20,000 nt of DNA, taken from contig JBFGJH010000007.1 of the NCBI GenBank assembly GCA_041577335.1, positions 54,858 through 74,857 of the forward strand, written 5' to 3'. The stretch comes from Acidimicrobiia bacterium. Lineage in GTDB: Bacteria; Actinomycetota; Acidimicrobiia; Spongiisociales; JAENVV01. Under the pieces are notes generated by a model, which searched no databases, was not told where the DNA came from, and was given only the letters and a program-made list of their open reading frames with translations. Positions within the stretch are counted from its first letter, which is position 1; each line of letters starts with the position of its first letter. A program made the position numbers and the translations under genes. Of the stretch, positions 4,574-11,421 are shown in pieces.

Positions 4574-5140
4574 ATGGCATTGATCGACCCCCTCGCATGG
4601 ATCGACTTGGAGATGACGGGCCTGGACCCTGGCTCTGACGTCATCGTGGAAATCGCAGTGATCCTCACCGACGGCCAGTTGGCACAGACGATCGAGGGAC
4701 CCGATTTGGTCATTGCCGCCCCACCCGACGCCCTGGCTCGGATGGCGCCGATCGTCCGCACGATGCACACAGAATCGGGCCTACTCGACCGGATCCGCAA
4801 TTCCGCGATGTCGGTCGCCCAGGCTGAGGAATCGGTGATGGCCTTCCTCAGTTCCAATATCGCGGAGGGACAAGAGGTGTTGCTGGCCGGCAACAGCGTC
4901 CATACCGATCGCAGCTTCATCCAGGCGCACATGCCGACGCTCGATGGATTCCTGCACTACCGCCACCTGGACGTGAGCACGCTCAAAGAGATCGCCAGGC
5001 GGTGGTACCCGGAGGCGCTCGCAACGGCTCCGCGCAAGAGTGGCGGCCACCGAGCGCTCGCCGACATCAGAGAGTCCATCAAAGAGCTCCGCCATTATCG
5101 ACAGACCTTGTTTGTGGAGAGGGCTCAGGAGCCCCAGTAG
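4574..5140 (+). CDS. orn: Oligoribonuclease
   Basis: WIDLEMTGLD, LAGNSVHTDR, HYRHLDVSTLKE, HRALADIRESIKEL; TACCGT -10 lies 6 nt before the ATG (probably leaderless). Confidence 0.95.
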   Translation: MALIDPLAWIDLEMTGLDPGSDVIVEIAVILTDGQLAQTIEGPDLVIAAPPDALARMAPIVRTMHTESGLLDRIRNSAMSVAQAEESVMAFLSSNIAEGQEVLLAGNSVHTDRSFIQAHMPTLDGFLHYRHLDVSTLKEIARRWYPEALATAPRKSGGHRALADIRESIKELRHYRQTLFVERAQEPQ

Positions 5141-5733
5141 CGCTGCTCCCGGAACGGGTCGCCGTACATGTGGTAGCCATTTCGTTCCCAGAACCCGGCG
5201 ACATCATGATCGAGGAAACGGAAGCTCCGAACCCACTTCACCGACTTCCAGAAGTAGAGATGCGGGACAACGAGCCGAAGTGGCCAGCCGTGCTCCAGTT
5301 CGAGAGGTTCGCCGTCGAACGACCATGCCAAGAGGTTCTCGGGGCGCAGGAAGTCATCGAGCGGGAGGTTGGCCGTGTAGCCGTGCTCCGCTTGCACGAG
5401 CACATGGCTGGCTTCGTCATTGAGTGCCACGCCGCTCATGAAGTCGGTGATTCGAACACCCTGCCACCGGGTGTCCAGCTTCGACCATTTGGTGACGCAA
5501 TGGATGTCGACAACCTGGTCGGTGGACGGCATTGCCGTGATCTCATCGAGGGTCCACGATTGCTCTGTCGCGACAAGGCCCATGATCTTGAAATCCCATG
5601 TTGCCAGGTCGATGTCGGGCACCACTCCTGCATGCAGCACCGGAAACCGGTCGGTGACGTATTGGCCCGGAGGTACCCGAGACGGGTCGACGCCATCTCC
5701 TCCTGGCGGCTGTTTGCCTCCTCCGAACCTCAT
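5125..5733 (-). CDS. Sulfite oxidase-like molybdopterin-dependent oxidoreductase
   Basis: RVPPGQY, FPVLH, DIHCVTKWS, EHGWPLRLVVPHLYFWKSVKW, GFWERNGYH..GDP; start MRFGGG at 5733 with TACACT 7 nt upstream. Confidence 0.9.
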   Translation of the reverse strand: MRFGGGKQPPGGDGVDPSRVPPGQYVTDRFPVLHAGVVPDIDLATWDFKIMGLVATEQSWTLDEITAMPSTDQVVDIHCVTKWSKLDTRWQGVRITDFMSGVALNDEASHVLVQAEHGYTANLPLDDFLRPENLLAWSFDGEPLELEHGWPLRLVVPHLYFWKSVKWVRSFRFLDHDVAGFWERNGYHMYGDPFREQRYWGS

Positions 5734-5740
5734 GCGGGCG

Positions 5741-5767
5741 AGTGTAACGACGCGCACCCGGTAACAT
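5741..5767. promoter_or_regulatory. Back-to-back -10 elements for two divergent, probably leaderless genes
   Basis: TACACT (minus, 5741-5746) is 7 nt before ATG 5733; TAACAT (plus, 5762-5767) is 6 nt before ATG 5774; no SD sequence. Confidence 0.6.
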
Positions 5768-5773
5768 CCTGAA

Positions 5774-6352
5774 ATGGATTCGGACAGCTCCGATGGTCCA
5801 CTCCCCCGAAGAACGGGCCGACTCACGGCGATCTTCATAGGTGTGATCGCTATTGCCCTGATCGCCGCCGCGGTGTGGCCTGGCCAGGACTCGACCCCGC
5901 TCGCCGAGGCGGGCGCCCTCGGCGTCGTCGGTAACGAAGATCCCGCCCCGGACTTCACGGTTCGCCTTTTCGACGGCTCCACCTTCACGCTTTCGGAGCA
6001 CCTGGTGACGGACGGCAGGCCAGTTGTCCTGAATTTCTGGGCTTCGTGGTGCGCTCCGTGTCGAGCCGAAATGCCCGACTTCGACGCGGTGGCAGCCGAA
6101 AAGCCGGGCCTCTTGGTTCTAGGGGTGGCCGTACAGGACTCCGAGGCCAACGCTCGCGAGTTTGCTGAAGAAGTAGGAGTTTCGTACCCGCTGGGCATTG
6201 ATAGCGACGAAACGGTGGCCGCGGCATATCGCTACCTGGGATTGCCTGCGACGTGGCTCATCTCTACGGACGGAACGATCGCCCGCCAGATCAACGGGCA
6301 GGTCGATGCAGATGCGCTGCGAGAGATGGTGGCAGGCAGTTTCGGCTTCTGA
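5774..6352 (+). CDS. Membrane-anchored TlpA/ResA-family thiol-disulfide oxidoreductase
   Basis: N-terminal TM, APDFT, VVLNFWASWCAPCRAEMP, GLPAT cis-Pro motif. Confidence 0.92.
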   Translation: MDSDSSDGPLPRRTGRLTAIFIGVIAIALIAAAVWPGQDSTPLAEAGALGVVGNEDPAPDFTVRLFDGSTFTLSEHLVTDGRPVVLNFWASWCAPCRAEMPDFDAVAAEKPGLLVLGVAVQDSEANAREFAEEVGVSYPLGIDSDETVAAAYRYLGLPATWLISTDGTIARQINGQVDADALREMVAGSFGF

Positions 6353-6495: not shown

Positions 6496-6645
6496 CTACT
6501 GAATCACTCCACCGTTGTCGATGAGATCGCCCGCCCGCTCGAACGCGAGAGCGAGTGCCATGAGCGCCAACACCAGCAGGACCACCATGACTCCTGCCCG
6601 CACGGGCGGCGGACCGGGAAGACCGTTGTATATCCGTTTCAGCAT
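6496..6645 (-). CDS. 49-aa single-TM membrane protein coupled to the sortase gene (not in ORF track)
   Basis: MLKRIYNGLPGPPPVRAGVMVVLLVLALMALALAFERAGDLIDNGGVIQ; its ATG overlaps the sortase TGA (TGATG); the LPGP + TM pattern resembles small proteins found after actinobacterial class E sortases. Confidence 0.75.
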   Translation of the reverse strand: MLKRIYNGLPGPPPVRAGVMVVLLVLALMALALAFERAGDLIDNGGVIQ

Positions 6646-7373
6646 CAGCCGACTCCGACGCTATCAGAGCCGTCGGCCGTGTCAGACGCTCCGTAGAGAT
6701 ATTCGAAATTCGGACCGTCGACGAGCTCGGCGAACACCACGAGGCGCTGGCGAGCCGATCGCCTGGGATGACAAGTCGTGAGCGTGAGCCACGAACCTTC
6801 CCGGGGCTCGGTCACCCACACGTCGGTGGGCTCGACAATCAAGACTTCCCGAACCGTGTAGATGTGGGCGCCGGTCGCCGTCTGGACCGTGATCTCGTCG
6901 CCGTCTTCGAGTAGATCGAGATCAGCAAACGGAGCTTCATATGTGGTGCGATGACCGCTGATCACGGCGTTGCCGGGCTGGCCGGGCAGCGGGGTCCACG
7001 GCATGTGCCCCGGGCCCTTCTTCAGGTCGTCTCGGCGCACGCCCTCGAAAACAATGTGGTCGACCTCCGCCTTTTCGCTGATGATGCGCGCGAATGGATT
7101 GCCCTCATCGACCGCGAACTCCGGGTAGAGCACCGGGGCGGTTTCGTCGGATCCTTGATCGGGAGCGGTCCCCACAACGGCTGGAGCCACCGGGAGCCCG
7201 GCTTCCTGAATCTGATCGATCGTGTTGTCAAAGATGCTCTCGAGCTGAGACTCGGCGTCGGCCTGCGCCTGCGCTGTGATGAACCCCGTTCCCCACAGCT
7301 GATAGGCGAGAAACGCCAGGATGAGTCCCCCGGACCAGATCATGGCCCACCCGAGAATGCGGACGACCTTCAC
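6645..7373 (-). CDS. Class E sortase
   Basis: N-terminal TM (AFLAYQLWGTG), LKKGPGH, PGQPGNAVISGHRTTY, LTLTTCHP...RL catalytic His/Cys/Arg; AGAGAGG RBS before GTG 7373. Confidence 0.92.
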   Translation of the reverse strand: MKVVRILGWAMIWSGGLILAFLAYQLWGTGFITAQAQADAESQLESIFDNTIDQIQEAGLPVAPAVVGTAPDQGSDETAPVLYPEFAVDEGNPFARIISEKAEVDHIVFEGVRRDDLKKGPGHMPWTPLPGQPGNAVISGHRTTYEAPFADLDLLEDGDEITVQTATGAHIYTVREVLIVEPTDVWVTEPREGSWLTLTTCHPRRSARQRLVVFAELVDGPNFEYLYGASDTADGSDSVGVG

Positions 7374-7422
7374 CCACACACCTCTCTTTCGAGTGGTCAG
7401 CGTATCAGTGTCTCGGCGCTTC

Positions 7423-8184
7423 TCAACGTCCCTTGAACTCGGGTGTCCGCTTCCCGACAAAGGCAGCCAGCCCCTCGCGAGCATCCTCGGTCATCGCCAC
7501 CGAGGTGAGACCCACAGCGAGATGGTCGAGAGCCGCATCGAAGGCCAGATCTTGGACTGCATAGAAGCTGTGTTTGCCCATGGCCAGCACAGCCCGACTC
7601 TTGCTCATGAGCTCAGCAACGAGCTCGTCGACCGCGGCGTCGAGCTCTTCCGGAGCGACCACTCGGGACAGGGCACCGATCCGCAAGGCCTCGGCGGCCC
7701 CGATCCGCCGACCGCTCATGACCAAGTCGAGGGCCACCTTGGGCGGAAGGCTCCGCTGAATCACTGTGGAGATCATCATCGGGAACAGGCCGACCGTCAC
7801 CTCGGGCGCTCCAAACGATGCCATGTCGACGCCGATTGCCATATCGCACGCCAGCATCAACCCGAAGCCGCCGGCTAGCGCATGTCCGTTGACGCGGGCC
7901 ACAACCGGCTGATCGCAGCGCCGCATCAATCGAAACAGCTCAGCAAGTCGGCTCCGTTCTCGGTGAGTGGCAAGCGGCTCATCGAAAAATCCACCGCTGA
8001 GGTCCCCGCCTGCGCAAAACGCCTTGTCGCCTGCCCCGGTGATGATTACAACCCGGATCTGGTCTGGCATCGTGTTGAACCCACTGATCAAGCCGGCAAC
8101 GACATCGTCGGTCAGCGGGTTGCGGCGATCAGGGTCGTCGATGGTGAATGTGAGCCGTCCCGCAGAAACTTCGGTTCGGAGCAT
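7423..8184 (-). CDS. Enoyl-CoA hydratase/isomerase (crotonase) family protein
   Basis: RRNPL, AFCAGGDL, ARVNGHALAGGFGL, FGAPEVTVGLFP, DAREGLAAFVGKRTPEFKGR; AGGAG RBS. Confidence 0.92.
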   Translation of the reverse strand: MLRTEVSAGRLTFTIDDPDRRNPLTDDVVAGLISGFNTMPDQIRVVIITGAGDKAFCAGGDLSGGFFDEPLATHRERSRLAELFRLMRRCDQPVVARVNGHALAGGFGLMLACDMAIGVDMASFGAPEVTVGLFPMMISTVIQRSLPPKVALDLVMSGRRIGAAEALRIGALSRVVAPEELDAAVDELVAELMSKSRAVLAMGKHSFYAVQDLAFDAALDHLAVGLTSVAMTEDAREGLAAFVGKRTPEFKGR

Positions 8185-8251
8185 GATTCTCCTGGATATC
8201 GTTGGCGAAACATAGTCGATTGGCCCCCCACCCTGGTACGGTCGAAACGCA

Positions 8252-8839
8252 ATGCTGTGGCTCCTCCTCGTCCTATTCATAGCGATCTTCATTGCCGTGC
8301 TGCGTGGTGGCCGGTTGGGCAACCTGGCGGAGATCGAACTGAAGCTGTGGTACCTGTTGGTGCTTGGCTTCGTCATGCAGGGCGTCACCGAATTCTTCCC
8401 AGATGATGCGTCCTGGTCACGGCCAGCTGGCGTGTCTTTGGTGCTGCTGTCCTATCTGCCGATCCTCGCCACGATTGCGGCCAACCGCGCCAAGCCGGGG
8501 ATGTGGCTGGCCGGAATCGGGATTCTGATGAACTTCACCGTCATCGCTTCCAACGGTGGCATGCCGGTGATGCAGGAAGCTGCCCAGGTGGCGGCGTCCA
8601 CCGACGCAATCGTCCTCGTCGCCGACCACAAGCACGTGGTGCTCGATGCGGCAACCCGCCTTCCCTTCCTGGCTGATGTGATTCCCCTTCGTTTTCTCGG
8701 GGAGGGCAACGTGTTGTCGCTGGGCGATGTGTTCCTGGCGGTCGGTCTCGGCCGGTTCCTCGAGGCTGAGCTCAGGCGTCCGGTCCGTTGGTTCAAACAC
8801 AGGGCGGCATCGGAATCAGGGAGCGCAGAACGCGGCTAG
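8252..8839 (+). CDS. DUF5317-family membrane protein
   Basis: RGGRLGNL N-terminus, G..MN..VIASNGGMPV, KH, TRLPFLADVIP, LSLGDV; recognised from memory of the family; extended -10 TGgTACGGT upstream. Confidence 0.8.
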   Translation: MLWLLLVLFIAIFIAVLRGGRLGNLAEIELKLWYLLVLGFVMQGVTEFFPDDASWSRPAGVSLVLLSYLPILATIAANRAKPGMWLAGIGILMNFTVIASNGGMPVMQEAAQVAASTDAIVLVADHKHVVLDAATRLPFLADVIPLRFLGEGNVLSLGDVFLAVGLGRFLEAELRRPVRWFKHRAASESGSAERG

Positions 8840-8849
8840 CGAGCAGGCT

Positions 8850-10079
8850 TCACCGAACTGCTGCTGTGTTGACAAGCCCCAAGTCGACGACCGTGCGCAC
8901 CGCCTCGACGACATCAGGGTCGTAGTCATAGGCAGCTCCCCGGTGCATCACCTCGAGGGCTTCGAGTGGTGAGAAACCCATCTCGTTGATTGCGTGGTCG
9001 AACGCGCTCGATGCCCTGATGACCTTCGAAGCAAGAGGAACGTTGGGATCCTTCTGCTCTCCAGGCCGACGATACGGTTGATGTTGGAGGCGAACGAGCG
9101 TGGCCACGTTGCTGAGGTAGCGGGCCTCGGAGATGATCTCGCTCCCCCAGCGCGCAATGTCATCTTCGCTGAACCCTGCTTTGAGAATGTTCGGCTCATT
9201 GAGGGTTATGCGGCCGATGTCATGCATGCGAGAGGCGTATTCGAGGTCCTGGATCTCGTGGGGGGTCATTCCGAGCTCTTGCCCGATCGCGACCGCCATG
9301 GCGGCAGTCCTATCCGAATGGCCGTCGGGCGATAGGCCGGCAACCTCGGGGATCCGCGACAGGGCTCGGATCGTCTGGTCGTAGGTGGATTGTGCCTCGG
9401 CGGTCCGCTGGAACGCTATGTAAGCGAATGCGAATGGAGGAAGAGCGACGAGGAGCGTCCACCAGCGAAGAGCGCTCCACGAGAATCCAGCCAGAGCGCC
9501 CACGATGTACAGGCTGAACGAGACAGGCCAGTCATCGAATGCCAGGATGGCCAGGTAACTGAGAGAGAGCCGGTCGCGGCCATACGAGGTCAACGCCCAT
9601 GCGCCCATCTCGAACACGAACCAGACGACCGCGGCGAGCGCAAACGCCACCAGCGGGCCCGACTCCCATCCTTGCATCGAGGCAGACAACCCGTCGAAGG
9701 TGAAGGCGTACAAGCCGGCACCGAGCGAATTGCGGATCGCCGCGCTGTCGATGGCGTGGCCTTCCCTGCCTCCAATTCGGGCGAGCATCCATCCGCCGAG
9801 ATAGCCGGCTGAGTACACGCAGAAGACGGCGGCGAGATCGGCTCCTCCGCCGCCGCCGACGACAACAGGCACTGCGACGGCCACGGCAAATGCGAAGGAC
9901 AGGCGATTGCCACTCTTGGCGGGTACCTCAAACAAGCTAGCGATCGCGAGGATCGTGGCCCACACGAGTATTCCACCGATTCCGTAGTCGGTCACGCCGA
10001 TCGACATGAAGAAGATCGAGACCATGCCTATGGCCCATAGGACCGGCTGAAGCTGATCGCGTGCAGAGATCTCAGCCAT
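8850..10079 (-). CDS. Membrane protein with a degenerate HD-GYP domain
   Basis: ~7-8 TM N-terminus; GHSDR and MHDIGR are retained, but HH..GYP is replaced by QHQPYRRPG and ADxFD by SSAFD; ends YDPDVVEA. Confidence 0.85.
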   Translation of the reverse strand: MAEISARDQLQPVLWAIGMVSIFFMSIGVTDYGIGGILVWATILAIASLFEVPAKSGNRLSFAFAVAVAVPVVVGGGGGADLAAVFCVYSAGYLGGWMLARIGGREGHAIDSAAIRNSLGAGLYAFTFDGLSASMQGWESGPLVAFALAAVVWFVFEMGAWALTSYGRDRLSLSYLAILAFDDWPVSFSLYIVGALAGFSWSALRWWTLLVALPPFAFAYIAFQRTAEAQSTYDQTIRALSRIPEVAGLSPDGHSDRTAAMAVAIGQELGMTPHEIQDLEYASRMHDIGRITLNEPNILKAGFSEDDIARWGSEIISEARYLSNVATLVRLQHQPYRRPGEQKDPNVPLASKVIRASSAFDHAINEMGFSPLEALEVMHRGAAYDYDPDVVEAVRTVVDLGLVNTAAVR

Positions 10080-11421
10080 GATGAGCCTCTATTCCCGCCC
10101 GTCCTTCGGCAACCATTCTCGCCAGGACATCCGAGTCCATCGACGGCGACCCATATCGCTCACCGGTGCGGGCAAGTCCACGTACCAACGCGTCGACGAC
10201 CTCGGGGTCGAACTGCGTCCCCGCATGGGAGCGCAGCTCTTGGAGTGCGTATTCTTGCGTCAGAGCCATCCGGTACGACCGGGTCGACGTCATTGCGTCG
10301 AACGAATCGGCGACGGCCAGGATGCAGGCCTCGGGCGACGGCGGCTCGCCGGCGGTGTGACCGGTGCCGCCATACCCCGTTCCGTCGTAACGTGAATGAT
10401 GGCCCGAGGCGATCTGAACCATCGGTCGGAGGAACTCCACCTCGGCGAGGATGTCCTCGACCATATGGGCGTGACGCTGCAGTTCTTCGTACTCGCCGTC
10501 ATCGAGCCGCCCGCGCTTGCGAATGAGTTCCCCGGGCACAGCCAGCTTGCCGACGTCGTGAATGAGGGCGGCCCAACGAAGCCTTTCCAGCGCGGTTCCT
10601 CGGTAACTGAGCTCCTCCCCGATGAGTTGCGCGAAATAGGCGACCCTCTCGGTATGGCCCCGGGTGTATAAGTCTTTGGCTTCCAACGCCTTGATGAAGC
10701 CGCGCAAGGTGCCTTCATGGGCATCGCGCAGTTTGCTATAGCTGCCTATCCCGACGTATCCGACGACGAGGAGGCCGAAGACCAACGGCAACACATTCGG
10801 CTCGACGTGATAGGTCGCTCCAACCAGCCCACCCATGAATCCCAGCAGAATCGAAGATGGAACCATCGACCCCATGCGAGACCACGGGCGGATATTCCTT
10901 TGCTGATAGATGACTCTGACAGCCAGGTTCACGCTGCCCAGGTTGACTGCGTTGTAGACCAAGCTCGCCAATGCCGCTCCCGAGGCAGCCAGGCCAAAAT
11001 CGCCGACCGTCCAGTTGCTCCATTCGTTGTTGGCCGGCAGAAACGGCTCGAGCACGAAGGCAGCAACCACGGCCGAGGTGACCAATTGACCGAGGTTCAC
11101 GAGTGGCACAACCACTCGCCTTTCCCTGAAATCAACTGGGCGGAACGGGGCGAGGAGCGCAATGACGCCGACTCCCAGCGCAGCTGTTTCGGGGCCGAAC
11201 GCCACCGCGGCCGCCAGTATGGCCATGACGCTGGGGCTGCTGATGAGGTGGTCGTTGATCTCGAACGATCGCCACTCGAGAAAGACCACCACGAGGGCGA
11301 ATGGCAGCCACGGCATCAACGGGGGGAACGAGTGTGTCAGGGCAGCAATGAGCAAGACCCCTAGACCTACCCCGGTGTAAAGGGCTGCGAGCAACACTCG
11401 TGCCCTTGTCTGCGCTTTCAA
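10072..11421 (-). CDS. Membrane-bound HD-GYP cyclic dinucleotide phosphodiesterase
   Basis: Multi-TM sensor region; KDLYTRGHTERV, IHDVGK, HHSRYDGTGYG, VADSFDAMTSTRSYR, GTQFDP; TTG start with GGAGGG RBS; overlaps the next gene by 8 nt. Confidence 0.9.
   Translation of the reverse strand: MKAQTRARVLLAALYTGVGLGVLLIAALTHSFPPLMPWLPFALVVVFLEWRSFEINDHLISSPSVMAILAAAVAFGPETAALGVGVIALLAPFRPVDFRERRVVVPLVNLGQLVTSAVVAAFVLEPFLPANNEWSNWTVGDFGLAASGAALASLVYNAVNLGSVNLAVRVIYQQRNIRPWSRMGSMVPSSILLGFMGGLVGATYHVEPNVLPLVFGLLVVGYVGIGSYSKLRDAHEGTLRGFIKALEAKDLYTRGHTERVAYFAQLIGEELSYRGTALERLRWAALIHDVGKLAVPGELIRKRGRLDDGEYEELQRHAHMVEDILAEVEFLRPMVQIASGHHSRYDGTGYGGTGHTAGEPPSPEACILAVADSFDAMTSTRSYRMALTQEYALQELRSHAGTQFDPEVVDALVRGLARTGERYGSPSMDSDVLARMVAEGRAGIEAHHG

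Follow-up and report, generated by a model that had tools for sequence, protein, structure and literature searches.

The DUF5317 gene and its invariant residues

The gene described here belongs to the DUF5317 family (PF17248) and lies in a 20,000-nucleotide stretch (54,858 to 74,857) of contig JBFGJH010000007.1 from an Acidimicrobiia bacterium; this whole stretch is called the window. DUF5317 is a catalogued Pfam family without an assigned function, and neither DUF5317 nor PF17248 was named anywhere in a full-text search of 8.1 million PMC papers and 0.36 million preprints. The family may tentatively be read as a divergent, outward-facing aspartyl hydrolase that resembles lipoprotein signal peptidase II (LspA), a reading which we regard as possible and still doubtful. 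What speaks for it are two family-invariant aspartates, a β-hairpin predicted between them, and the place of LspA structures among the top structural matches of the protein model. The gene and the relevant parts of its product are the following.

8252..8839, + strand: DUF5317 gene with five predicted transmembrane (TM) helices, from the open reading frame (ORF), the PF17248 match and the AlphaFold2 model.

8501..8554, + strand: TM4, residues 84-101, with G90, N94 and N101 (invariant in 124/124 sequences); proposed counterpart of LspA helix 3 (GxxxN), an equivalence suggested by alignment ranges.

8555..8674, + strand: extracytoplasmic insert, residues 102-141, marked by a low density of lysine plus arginine (K+R, 0.076) and by the N101-D142 spacing.

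8675..8677, + strand: codon of D142 (GAT), proposed counterpart of the first catalytic Asp of LspA (V-x-D); invariant in 124/124, just before strand 144-148.

8681..8716, + strand: β-hairpin between the two invariant aspartates, strands 144-148 and 151-155, from DSSP on the model.

8717..8728, + strand: S156-L-G158-D159 at the start of TM5, proposed counterpart of LspA N-x-A-D; Ser, Gly and Asp invariant in 124/124.

The ORF list of the window gives an ATG at 8252 and a stop codon ending at 8839 on the + strand, which define a protein of 195 amino acids. Profile positions 1-149 of the 151 of PF17248 are matched with an E value of 1.5e-30 and a score of 106.7 bits (cut-off 25). The product is a genuine and ordinary DUF5317 member in which all family-invariant residues are kept. 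Besides DUF5317, the Pfam scan of this protein returned two weak DUFs and nothing more, no NCBIfam model matched it, and a look-alike search of the ESM Atlas with DUF5317 clusters excluded gave no usable match. Close relatives, found in metagenome bins of Acidimicrobiia and other Actinomycetota, are annotated as “DUF5317 domain-containing protein” or “hypothetical protein.”

An exhaustive profile-free search yielded 2,733 DUF5317 cluster representatives at E ≤ 0.001. The family alignment consists of the window protein and 123 near-full-length sequences taken from the best 150 of these 2,733, fragments and forms longer than about 240 amino acids having been dropped. The 124 sequences are diverse, with 27-63% identity to the window protein. 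The motifs quoted in the original prediction, which had likened this gene product to LspA by eye, are present in the window ORF and were checked at the codon level: G90-I-L-M-N94, N101-G-G-M104-P105-V, F-L-A-D142-V-I, and L-S156-L-G158-D159-V-F-L-A-V-G165. Most of their key residues are invariant in the family. G90, N94, N101, M104, P105, D142, S156, G158, and D159 are found in 124/124 sequences, both members of the aspartate pair among them. L140 (121/124), G165 (122/124), and H128 (111/124) are near-invariant, and G19, G20, Q43, N78, V97, V106, L140, and G165 are each kept in at least 90% of the alignment.

The AlphaFold2 model built from this alignment is of high confidence (predicted local distance difference test, pLDDT, 92.9; predicted template modelling score, pTM, 0.86). 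Its helices span residues 2-17, 33-48, 56-77, 84-101, and 157-174 according to DSSP. The modelled extracytoplasmic segment has strands at 104-106 (a short one) and 128-130, with two short helices between them, and is followed by the hairpin; residues 102-141 hold the invariant M104-P105 together with the near-invariant V106, H128, T135, L137, and L140. A second model (pLDDT 94.0) contains the same hairpin, with strands at 155-158 and 165-168. These two independent high-confidence models share the order aspartate, hairpin, S-x-G-D, helix.

Lysine and arginine are dense in loops 18-32 and 78-83 and the C-terminal tail (family-wide K+R density 0.20-0.23) and sparse in loop 49-55 and in segment 102-156 (0.05-0.08). 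The positive-inside rule therefore puts the N-terminus outside and the C-terminus inside, and this orientation places N101, M104, P105, H128, D142, S156, and D159 all on the outer face. The two membrane-proximal aspartates pointed out earlier are thus borne out as an invariant pair at the outer membrane boundary that flanks a hairpin. In the model, the first hairpin strand starts two residues after D142, and D159 follows the second strand by four residues, a geometry from which the two should be spatially close.

The outer end of TM4 recalls a different kind of membrane protein. CorA-type magnesium channels carry a GMN...MPEL signature, of which the Asn-Gly-Gly-Met-Pro loop is reminiscent, and a cation channel or transporter would account for the invariant N101, M104, and P105 at the outer mouth of this helix. 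Metal-related genes, namely an iron-dependent repressor (L038), HypF (L045), and a nickel-insertion protein (L070), are found near DUF5317 in other genomes, although in only 3 of the 40 loci described below. The CorA likeness is drawn by eye, and no CorA-type chain occurs in any fold list. The CorA-like reading was considered and not adopted, and a channel or transporter of any kind seems very unlikely.

Comparison of DUF5317 with LspA

The conserved residues listed for Staphylococcus aureus LspA by Olatunji et al. (2020, PMC6952399) are Asp21, Lys25, Asn52, Gly54, Gly102, Asn106, Asp109, Arg110, Val116, Asp118, Phe132, Asn133, Ala135, and Asp136. In that account the catalytic dyad is formed by Asp118 and Asp136, that is, by the Asp of V-x-D and the Asp of N-x-A-D, and the Asp of GNxxDR is not part of it (PMC6952399). 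Among 47 LspA sequences aligned here, D39, K43, N69, G71, N121, D124, and R125 are invariant. For the dyad of Pseudomonas aeruginosa LspA we presume a numbering whose sole cross-check is an alignment of the LspA of the source genome to the 169-residue chain 9emz_A, which, if the chain is natively numbered, gives Val122/Asp124 and Asn140/Ala142/Asp143.

These reference points bear on the register in which DUF5317 had been laid over LspA. The pairing of LSLGD with FNxAD stands, as it brings D159 onto a true catalytic aspartate of LspA. The pairing of NGGMPV with G.VVDF is probably wrong; the natural counterpart of V-V-D is probably L-A-D142. The spacing between the two aspartates is 13-19 residues in DUF5317; in LspA it is 14 in 46/47 sequences and 18-19 in the solved LspA. 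G165 stands at D+6 relative to D159, as does the corresponding LspA Gly. The distance from N101 to D142 is 37-49 residues in all 124 DUF5317 sequences, and that from the Asn to the first catalytic Asp is 12-19 in the 47 LspA.

A structural alignment method other than Foldseek was used to compare the model of the window protein, and this model only, with 48,161 representative chains. LspA structures were among the very best matches, and LspA chains had the two highest sequence identities in the match list (18% and 16%). The three LspA alignments stop at residues 174, 172, and 186 of the model and at residues 158, 156, and 163 of the respective chains. Each end is equidistant from D159 and from Asp143 or Asp136 (15, 13, and 27 residues), as expected if the last helices superpose with D159 and the second LspA aspartate in register. 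The alignment covers about 90% of LspA residues 56-158, and what stays unaligned in DUF5317 corresponds in size to its 37-49-residue insert. Simple arithmetic on the modelled helix boundaries would tentatively favour N101 over N94 as the partner of LspA Asn112.

Profile comparison by hhalign gave a related picture when restricted to the C-terminal halves. The sub-range alignments repeatedly pair D142 with the Asp of VVD, D159 with the Asp of NVAD, and G165 with the Gly at D+6, and in global mode N94 is also put on the Asn of LspA GN. Such a pairing is consistent with an LspA-like protein and does not amount to evidence for one.

A substantial body of results weighs against kinship with LspA. 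The sub-range alignments reached P values of 0.003-0.03 and probabilities of 1-11%, with several ranges tried, and the full-length hhalign of the DUF5317 alignment against the 47 LspA had a probability of 2.6%, on an unrelated N-terminal stretch. The DUF5317 profile, run against 177,635 distinct sequences of solved chains, found no LspA; its best matches, a copper transporter chimera (E 0.7) and a carbamate kinase (E 0.8), are at chance level. At E ≤ 10, Peptidase_A8 is absent from the 25 most frequently matched of the 80 Pfam families matched by the 124 members, DUF5317 is absent from the 25 listed of the 40 Pfam families matched by the 47 LspA, and PF01252 in the source genome matches the canonical LspA locus alone. 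The Foldseek comparison by which the original prediction was to be checked found nothing at E ≤ 0.001 when the model was run against 350,542 solved chains, and the rows around LspA in the other match list are unrelated helical bundles with similar Z scores. The order of motifs was also compared with chance in 7,986 open-frame segments of the source genome (1.9 million residues) against shuffled sequence. The pattern [LVI]xD...[NS]x[AG]Dx5G occurs in 19 frames against 18.9 ± 5.6 after shuffling; with an upstream GxxxN added, a single match remains, the DUF5317 gene itself, against 2.0 ± 0.9.

The motif order within one sequence is therefore no rarer than chance, and it is conservation throughout the family, together with position, that carries the signal. 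By these sequence comparisons, homology between DUF5317 and Peptidase A8 is not detectable, and the structural support for LspA likeness, obtained with the model of the window protein, is weakly positive and not robust. The proposal of an LspA-like aspartic peptidase is partly supported, by the invariant aspartates, the hairpin, and the top structural matches, and all sequence tests of relatedness to LspA are negative.

The source genome (3.38 Mb, 90.75% complete) has a single DUF5317 gene. On another contig it carries a canonical LspA gene, a 175-amino-acid ORF with GNLVDR, VVDF, and FNVAD that matches PF01252 at E 4.1e-33, and the DUF5317 gene is therefore not the LspA of the cell.

In the LspA-like reading, DUF5317 is a five-pass inner-membrane protein with its N-terminus out and its C-terminus in, whose invariant or nearly invariant polar residues N94, N101, H128, D142, S156, and D159 gather at the outer face. 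Its C-terminal half (TM3, TM4, loop, β-hairpin, and TM5) would be built like helices 2-4 of LspA. L-x-D142 before the hairpin and S-x-G-D159 on the last helix would then occupy the positions of the LspA catalytic pair, and the enzyme would cut a membrane-anchored substrate at the boundary of the outer leaflet. Family membership, residue invariance, topology, the weak structural match, and the gene context are observed; catalysis by D142 and D159, their side-by-side position, and the nature of the substrate are what we infer. Such an enzyme would be neither the lipoprotein signal peptidase of the cell nor dedicated to a neighbouring peptide.

Neighbouring genes and fusions

Of 301 genomes taken from across the phylum, 121 have DUF5317, often with 2-5 copies each; nine of the 121 are unpublished, and leaving these out gives 112/292. 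Among 14 control genomes it occurs in Thermus thermophilus and Thermotoga maritima. Gene context was compared in 40 loci from other genomes (given L numbers here), which were picked for family diversity and for contig and flank length, not at random. Their ORFs were called with a crude GC3-weighted heuristic that missed or mis-called the DUF5317 frame in several (e.g., L039, L047-L050, L055-L059), and the neighbour lists are approximate; 204 neighbouring frames of at least 50 amino acids were scanned against Pfam. Related genomes share gene order, and locus counts are not independent events. The neighbours in the window and two fusions in the loci are the following.

7423-8388 (longest frame), − strand: enoyl-CoA hydratase gene, divergent neighbour, from a Pfam match.

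8850..10079, − strand: 409-amino-acid membrane protein with a degenerate HD-GYP-type domain (HD_5, E 5.4e-7), convergent, its stop 10 bases from the DUF5317 gene.

10072..11421, − strand: 449-amino-acid membrane HD-GYP-type phosphodiesterase-like protein (HD_5, E 7.9e-32), with an 8-base overlap with the 8850..10079 gene.

L044:5881-7683, + strand: DUF5317-MFS fusion, from the Pfam scan of the locus.

L062:1937-4531, − strand: DUF5317-MFS fusion with C-terminal HEAT repeats, from the Pfam scan of the locus.

The original prediction went further and assigned the supposed peptidase to a neighbouring Cys-less peptide. The actual flanks are the hydratase and HD-domain genes. The nearest small Cys-free membrane ORF, at 6496-6645 on the − strand, lies two genes away, 1.6 kb from the DUF5317 gene on the other strand and past the hydratase and sortase genes. 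An ORF of this kind does exist, encoding 49 amino acids without Cys and with one hydrophobic helix, and a copy with 67% identity is present in a genome of the same genus. By tblastn, however, that copy (L051, E 5e-11) is the only one in the 40 loci, the next best match having E 0.16, and among frames of at least 50 amino acids no other small gene recurs beside DUF5317 there. In L051, as in the window, the ORF comes directly after a sortase gene (class-E-like, 6645-7484 in the window); it accompanies the sortase gene and not DUF5317. Through this lack of co-occurrence, the dedication of an LspA-like peptidase to the neighbouring peptide is close to refuted, and we hold that proposal to be highly improbable. 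The 49-amino-acid ORF may itself be a small sortase-associated membrane protein.

A different functional setting emerges from the neighbours that do recur. Within about 2.5 kb of DUF5317, a membrane HD_5/HD gene of the HD-GYP type is found in 15/40 loci, often as a tandem pair, and one further locus, L060, has a small HD protein. A histidine kinase (HisKA_3, PdtaS-type or MASE9-bearing) lies within the same distance in 19/40 loci and GGDEF-EAL genes in 2/40. At least one of the three is present in 32/40 loci, and in the window too. The eight loci without a signalling neighbour are L040, L044, L047, L054, L057, L058, L067, and L070. L043 and L064 show an operon-like arrangement, in which DUF5317 and the HD gene share a strand and overlap. 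Several signalling neighbours bear the membrane-sensor domain MASE9. In the 3.38 Mb of the source genome there are 5 HD_5 matches in total, of which 2 are the neighbours of DUF5317, and HD_5 occurs in 4/14 control genomes, both DUF5317-bearing ones included.

This association would fit a non-catalytic accessory protein or co-sensor. Such a protein would bind an ion or small ligand at the outer Asp/Asn/His site and signal within the membrane to the sensor neighbours or to a fused MFS transporter. The frequency of signalling neighbours, the same-strand overlaps, the MASE9 domains, the two HD_5 matches beside the single DUF5317 gene, and the HD_5 content of the positive controls are all in its favour. 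The eight loci without a signalling neighbour are not, and the manner in which the loci were selected, together with shared gene order, inflates their apparent independence. Co-occurrence is moreover not strict, as one genome of the same order (G119, 98% complete) encodes an HD-GYP membrane-domain homologue (E 7.7e-42) and gave no DUF5317 match. A search with the membrane domain of the distal HD-GYP protein reached 7/301 genomes, order-level relatives only, a range too narrow for a co-occurrence analysis. Furthermore, DUF5317 is not fused to a signalling output domain in any of 13 longer forms, and a set of nine residues that never vary, two Asp and a Ser among them, is seen more typically in catalytic sites than in contact surfaces. 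A co-sensor is accordingly a serious alternative that we nevertheless think rather unlikely.

The longer forms add to the context. In 12/13 of them DUF5317 is the N-terminal part of a fusion to an MFS transporter (MFS_1/MFS_3), the remaining form being of another kind. The fusion proteins (P0390-P0401 and those of L044 and L062) are 565-864 amino acids long, and the invariant residues are kept in 12/12 MFS-fused forms, except for a change of M104 to Leu in one. The C-in topology of DUF5317 fits such an N-terminal fusion. A different enzyme could be envisaged here, in which a metal-binding Asp/Asn/His cluster acts on an outer-leaflet lipid or envelope precursor as a phosphatase, transferase, or lipid hydrolase, with the fused MFS supplying or removing the substrate. 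H128, together with two Asp, two Asn, and a Ser on the outer face, would provide the ligands; the recurrent fusion with its residues preserved agrees with this, as does the lack of an evident peptide substrate gene in the 40 loci. On the other hand, no lipid-acting membrane enzyme stands out in the fold searches, and LspA alone among enzymes appears repeatedly in their upper ranks. A metal-dependent enzyme of this type remains, in our estimate, an improbable though not a far-fetched explanation.

Under the LspA-like reading, the same genes would describe the surroundings of the enzyme: membrane-bound cyclic di-GMP (c-di-GMP) and histidine-kinase signalling proteins as neighbours and MFS transporters as fusion partners. 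A more far-reaching version would make DUF5317 an unrecognised family of outward-facing membrane aspartyl peptidases, distant kin of LspA, which matures or cleaves MASE9-type HD-GYP phosphodiesterases, histidine kinases, or MFS cargo. We consider this extended form quite unlikely; if true, it would link membrane-surface proteolysis to c-di-GMP signalling.

Some further features of the loci deserve mention. The longest hydratase frame overlaps the start of DUF5317 by 137 bases; its Pfam match begins at residue 79, and the true start is therefore probably near 8184, which would leave about 67 bases between the two divergent genes. The degenerate HD protein beside DUF5317 has Y-R-R-P-G at the expected site of the GYP-type motif, and a pair of one strong and one degenerate HD gene recurs beside DUF5317 in L032, L034, L051, L052, L063, L064, and L066. 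secA adjoins DUF5317 or the DUF5317/HD-GYP cluster in L039, L041, L047, L052, and L057, in genomes of about 36-66% GC. At 5125-6352 of the window, a molybdopterin-oxidoreductase frame (5125-6198, −) overlaps a TlpA/redoxin frame (5774-6352, +); the molybdopterin domain is confined to the C-terminal part of its frame, and the real genes are therefore probably divergent and do not overlap.

DUF5317 compared with membrane aspartyl proteases

DUF5317 is a widespread family, with its 2,733 cluster representatives and its presence in about 40% of the sampled Actinomycetota genomes. Two invariant outer-face aspartates in an LspA-like arrangement constitute a testable hypothesis that would provide the first functional handle on the family; if it is true, the few known families of membrane aspartyl peptidases would gain DUF5317 as a further one. 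The new elements, namely a possible LspA-like core, the pairing with signalling genes, and the MFS fusions, indicate where a substrate or partner is to be sought.

Two known groups of membrane aspartyl proteases invite comparison. GxGD aspartyl proteases (presenilin/SPP, A22, and prepilin peptidase, A24) carry a YD motif in one transmembrane helix and a GxGD motif in the adjacent one. As in DUF5317, two Asp are on neighbouring membrane segments, and the second stands in a small-residue context that ends in G-D. The S-x-G-D of DUF5317 starts with an invariant Ser (124/124), unlike the Gly of the GxGD proteases, and its Asp pair is placed at the membrane surface, flanking a hairpin, whereas the GxGD aspartates are deep in adjacent helices. 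No GxGD protease chain is among the structural matches listed for the models. Kinship with GxGD proteases was considered on the basis of these motifs and not adopted.

The differences from LspA (PF01252; 5DIR, 6RYO, and 6RYP) are also considerable. The helix-1 Asp/Lys and the NxG(AAF) motif of LspA have no counterpart, and its β-cradle no evident one, in DUF5317, which keeps G-x3-N but has Val97/Ile98 in place of the Asp-Arg of GNxxDR. Conversely, its insert of 37-49 extracytoplasmic residues with the conserved His128 and Met-Pro has no counterpart in LspA. DUF5317 has five helices and LspA four, and a canonical LspA coexists with DUF5317 in the source genome, in Thermus, and in Thermotoga. 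DUF5317 is thus not to be filed under Peptidase A8; at most it shares a helix-Asp-hairpin-Asp-helix core with that family. Within this core several features, as modelled for DUF5317, agree. Both proteins present active-site-like residues at the outer membrane boundary, with helices that run out-in, in-out, then, after a hairpin, out-in. The first Asp follows a helix and precedes a β-hairpin ([V/L]-x-D), the second lies in the opening turn of the final helix ([N/S]-x-[A/G]-D-x5-G), and an invariant Asn stands in the preceding helix. By this analogy, DUF5317 may work in a manner similar to LspA.
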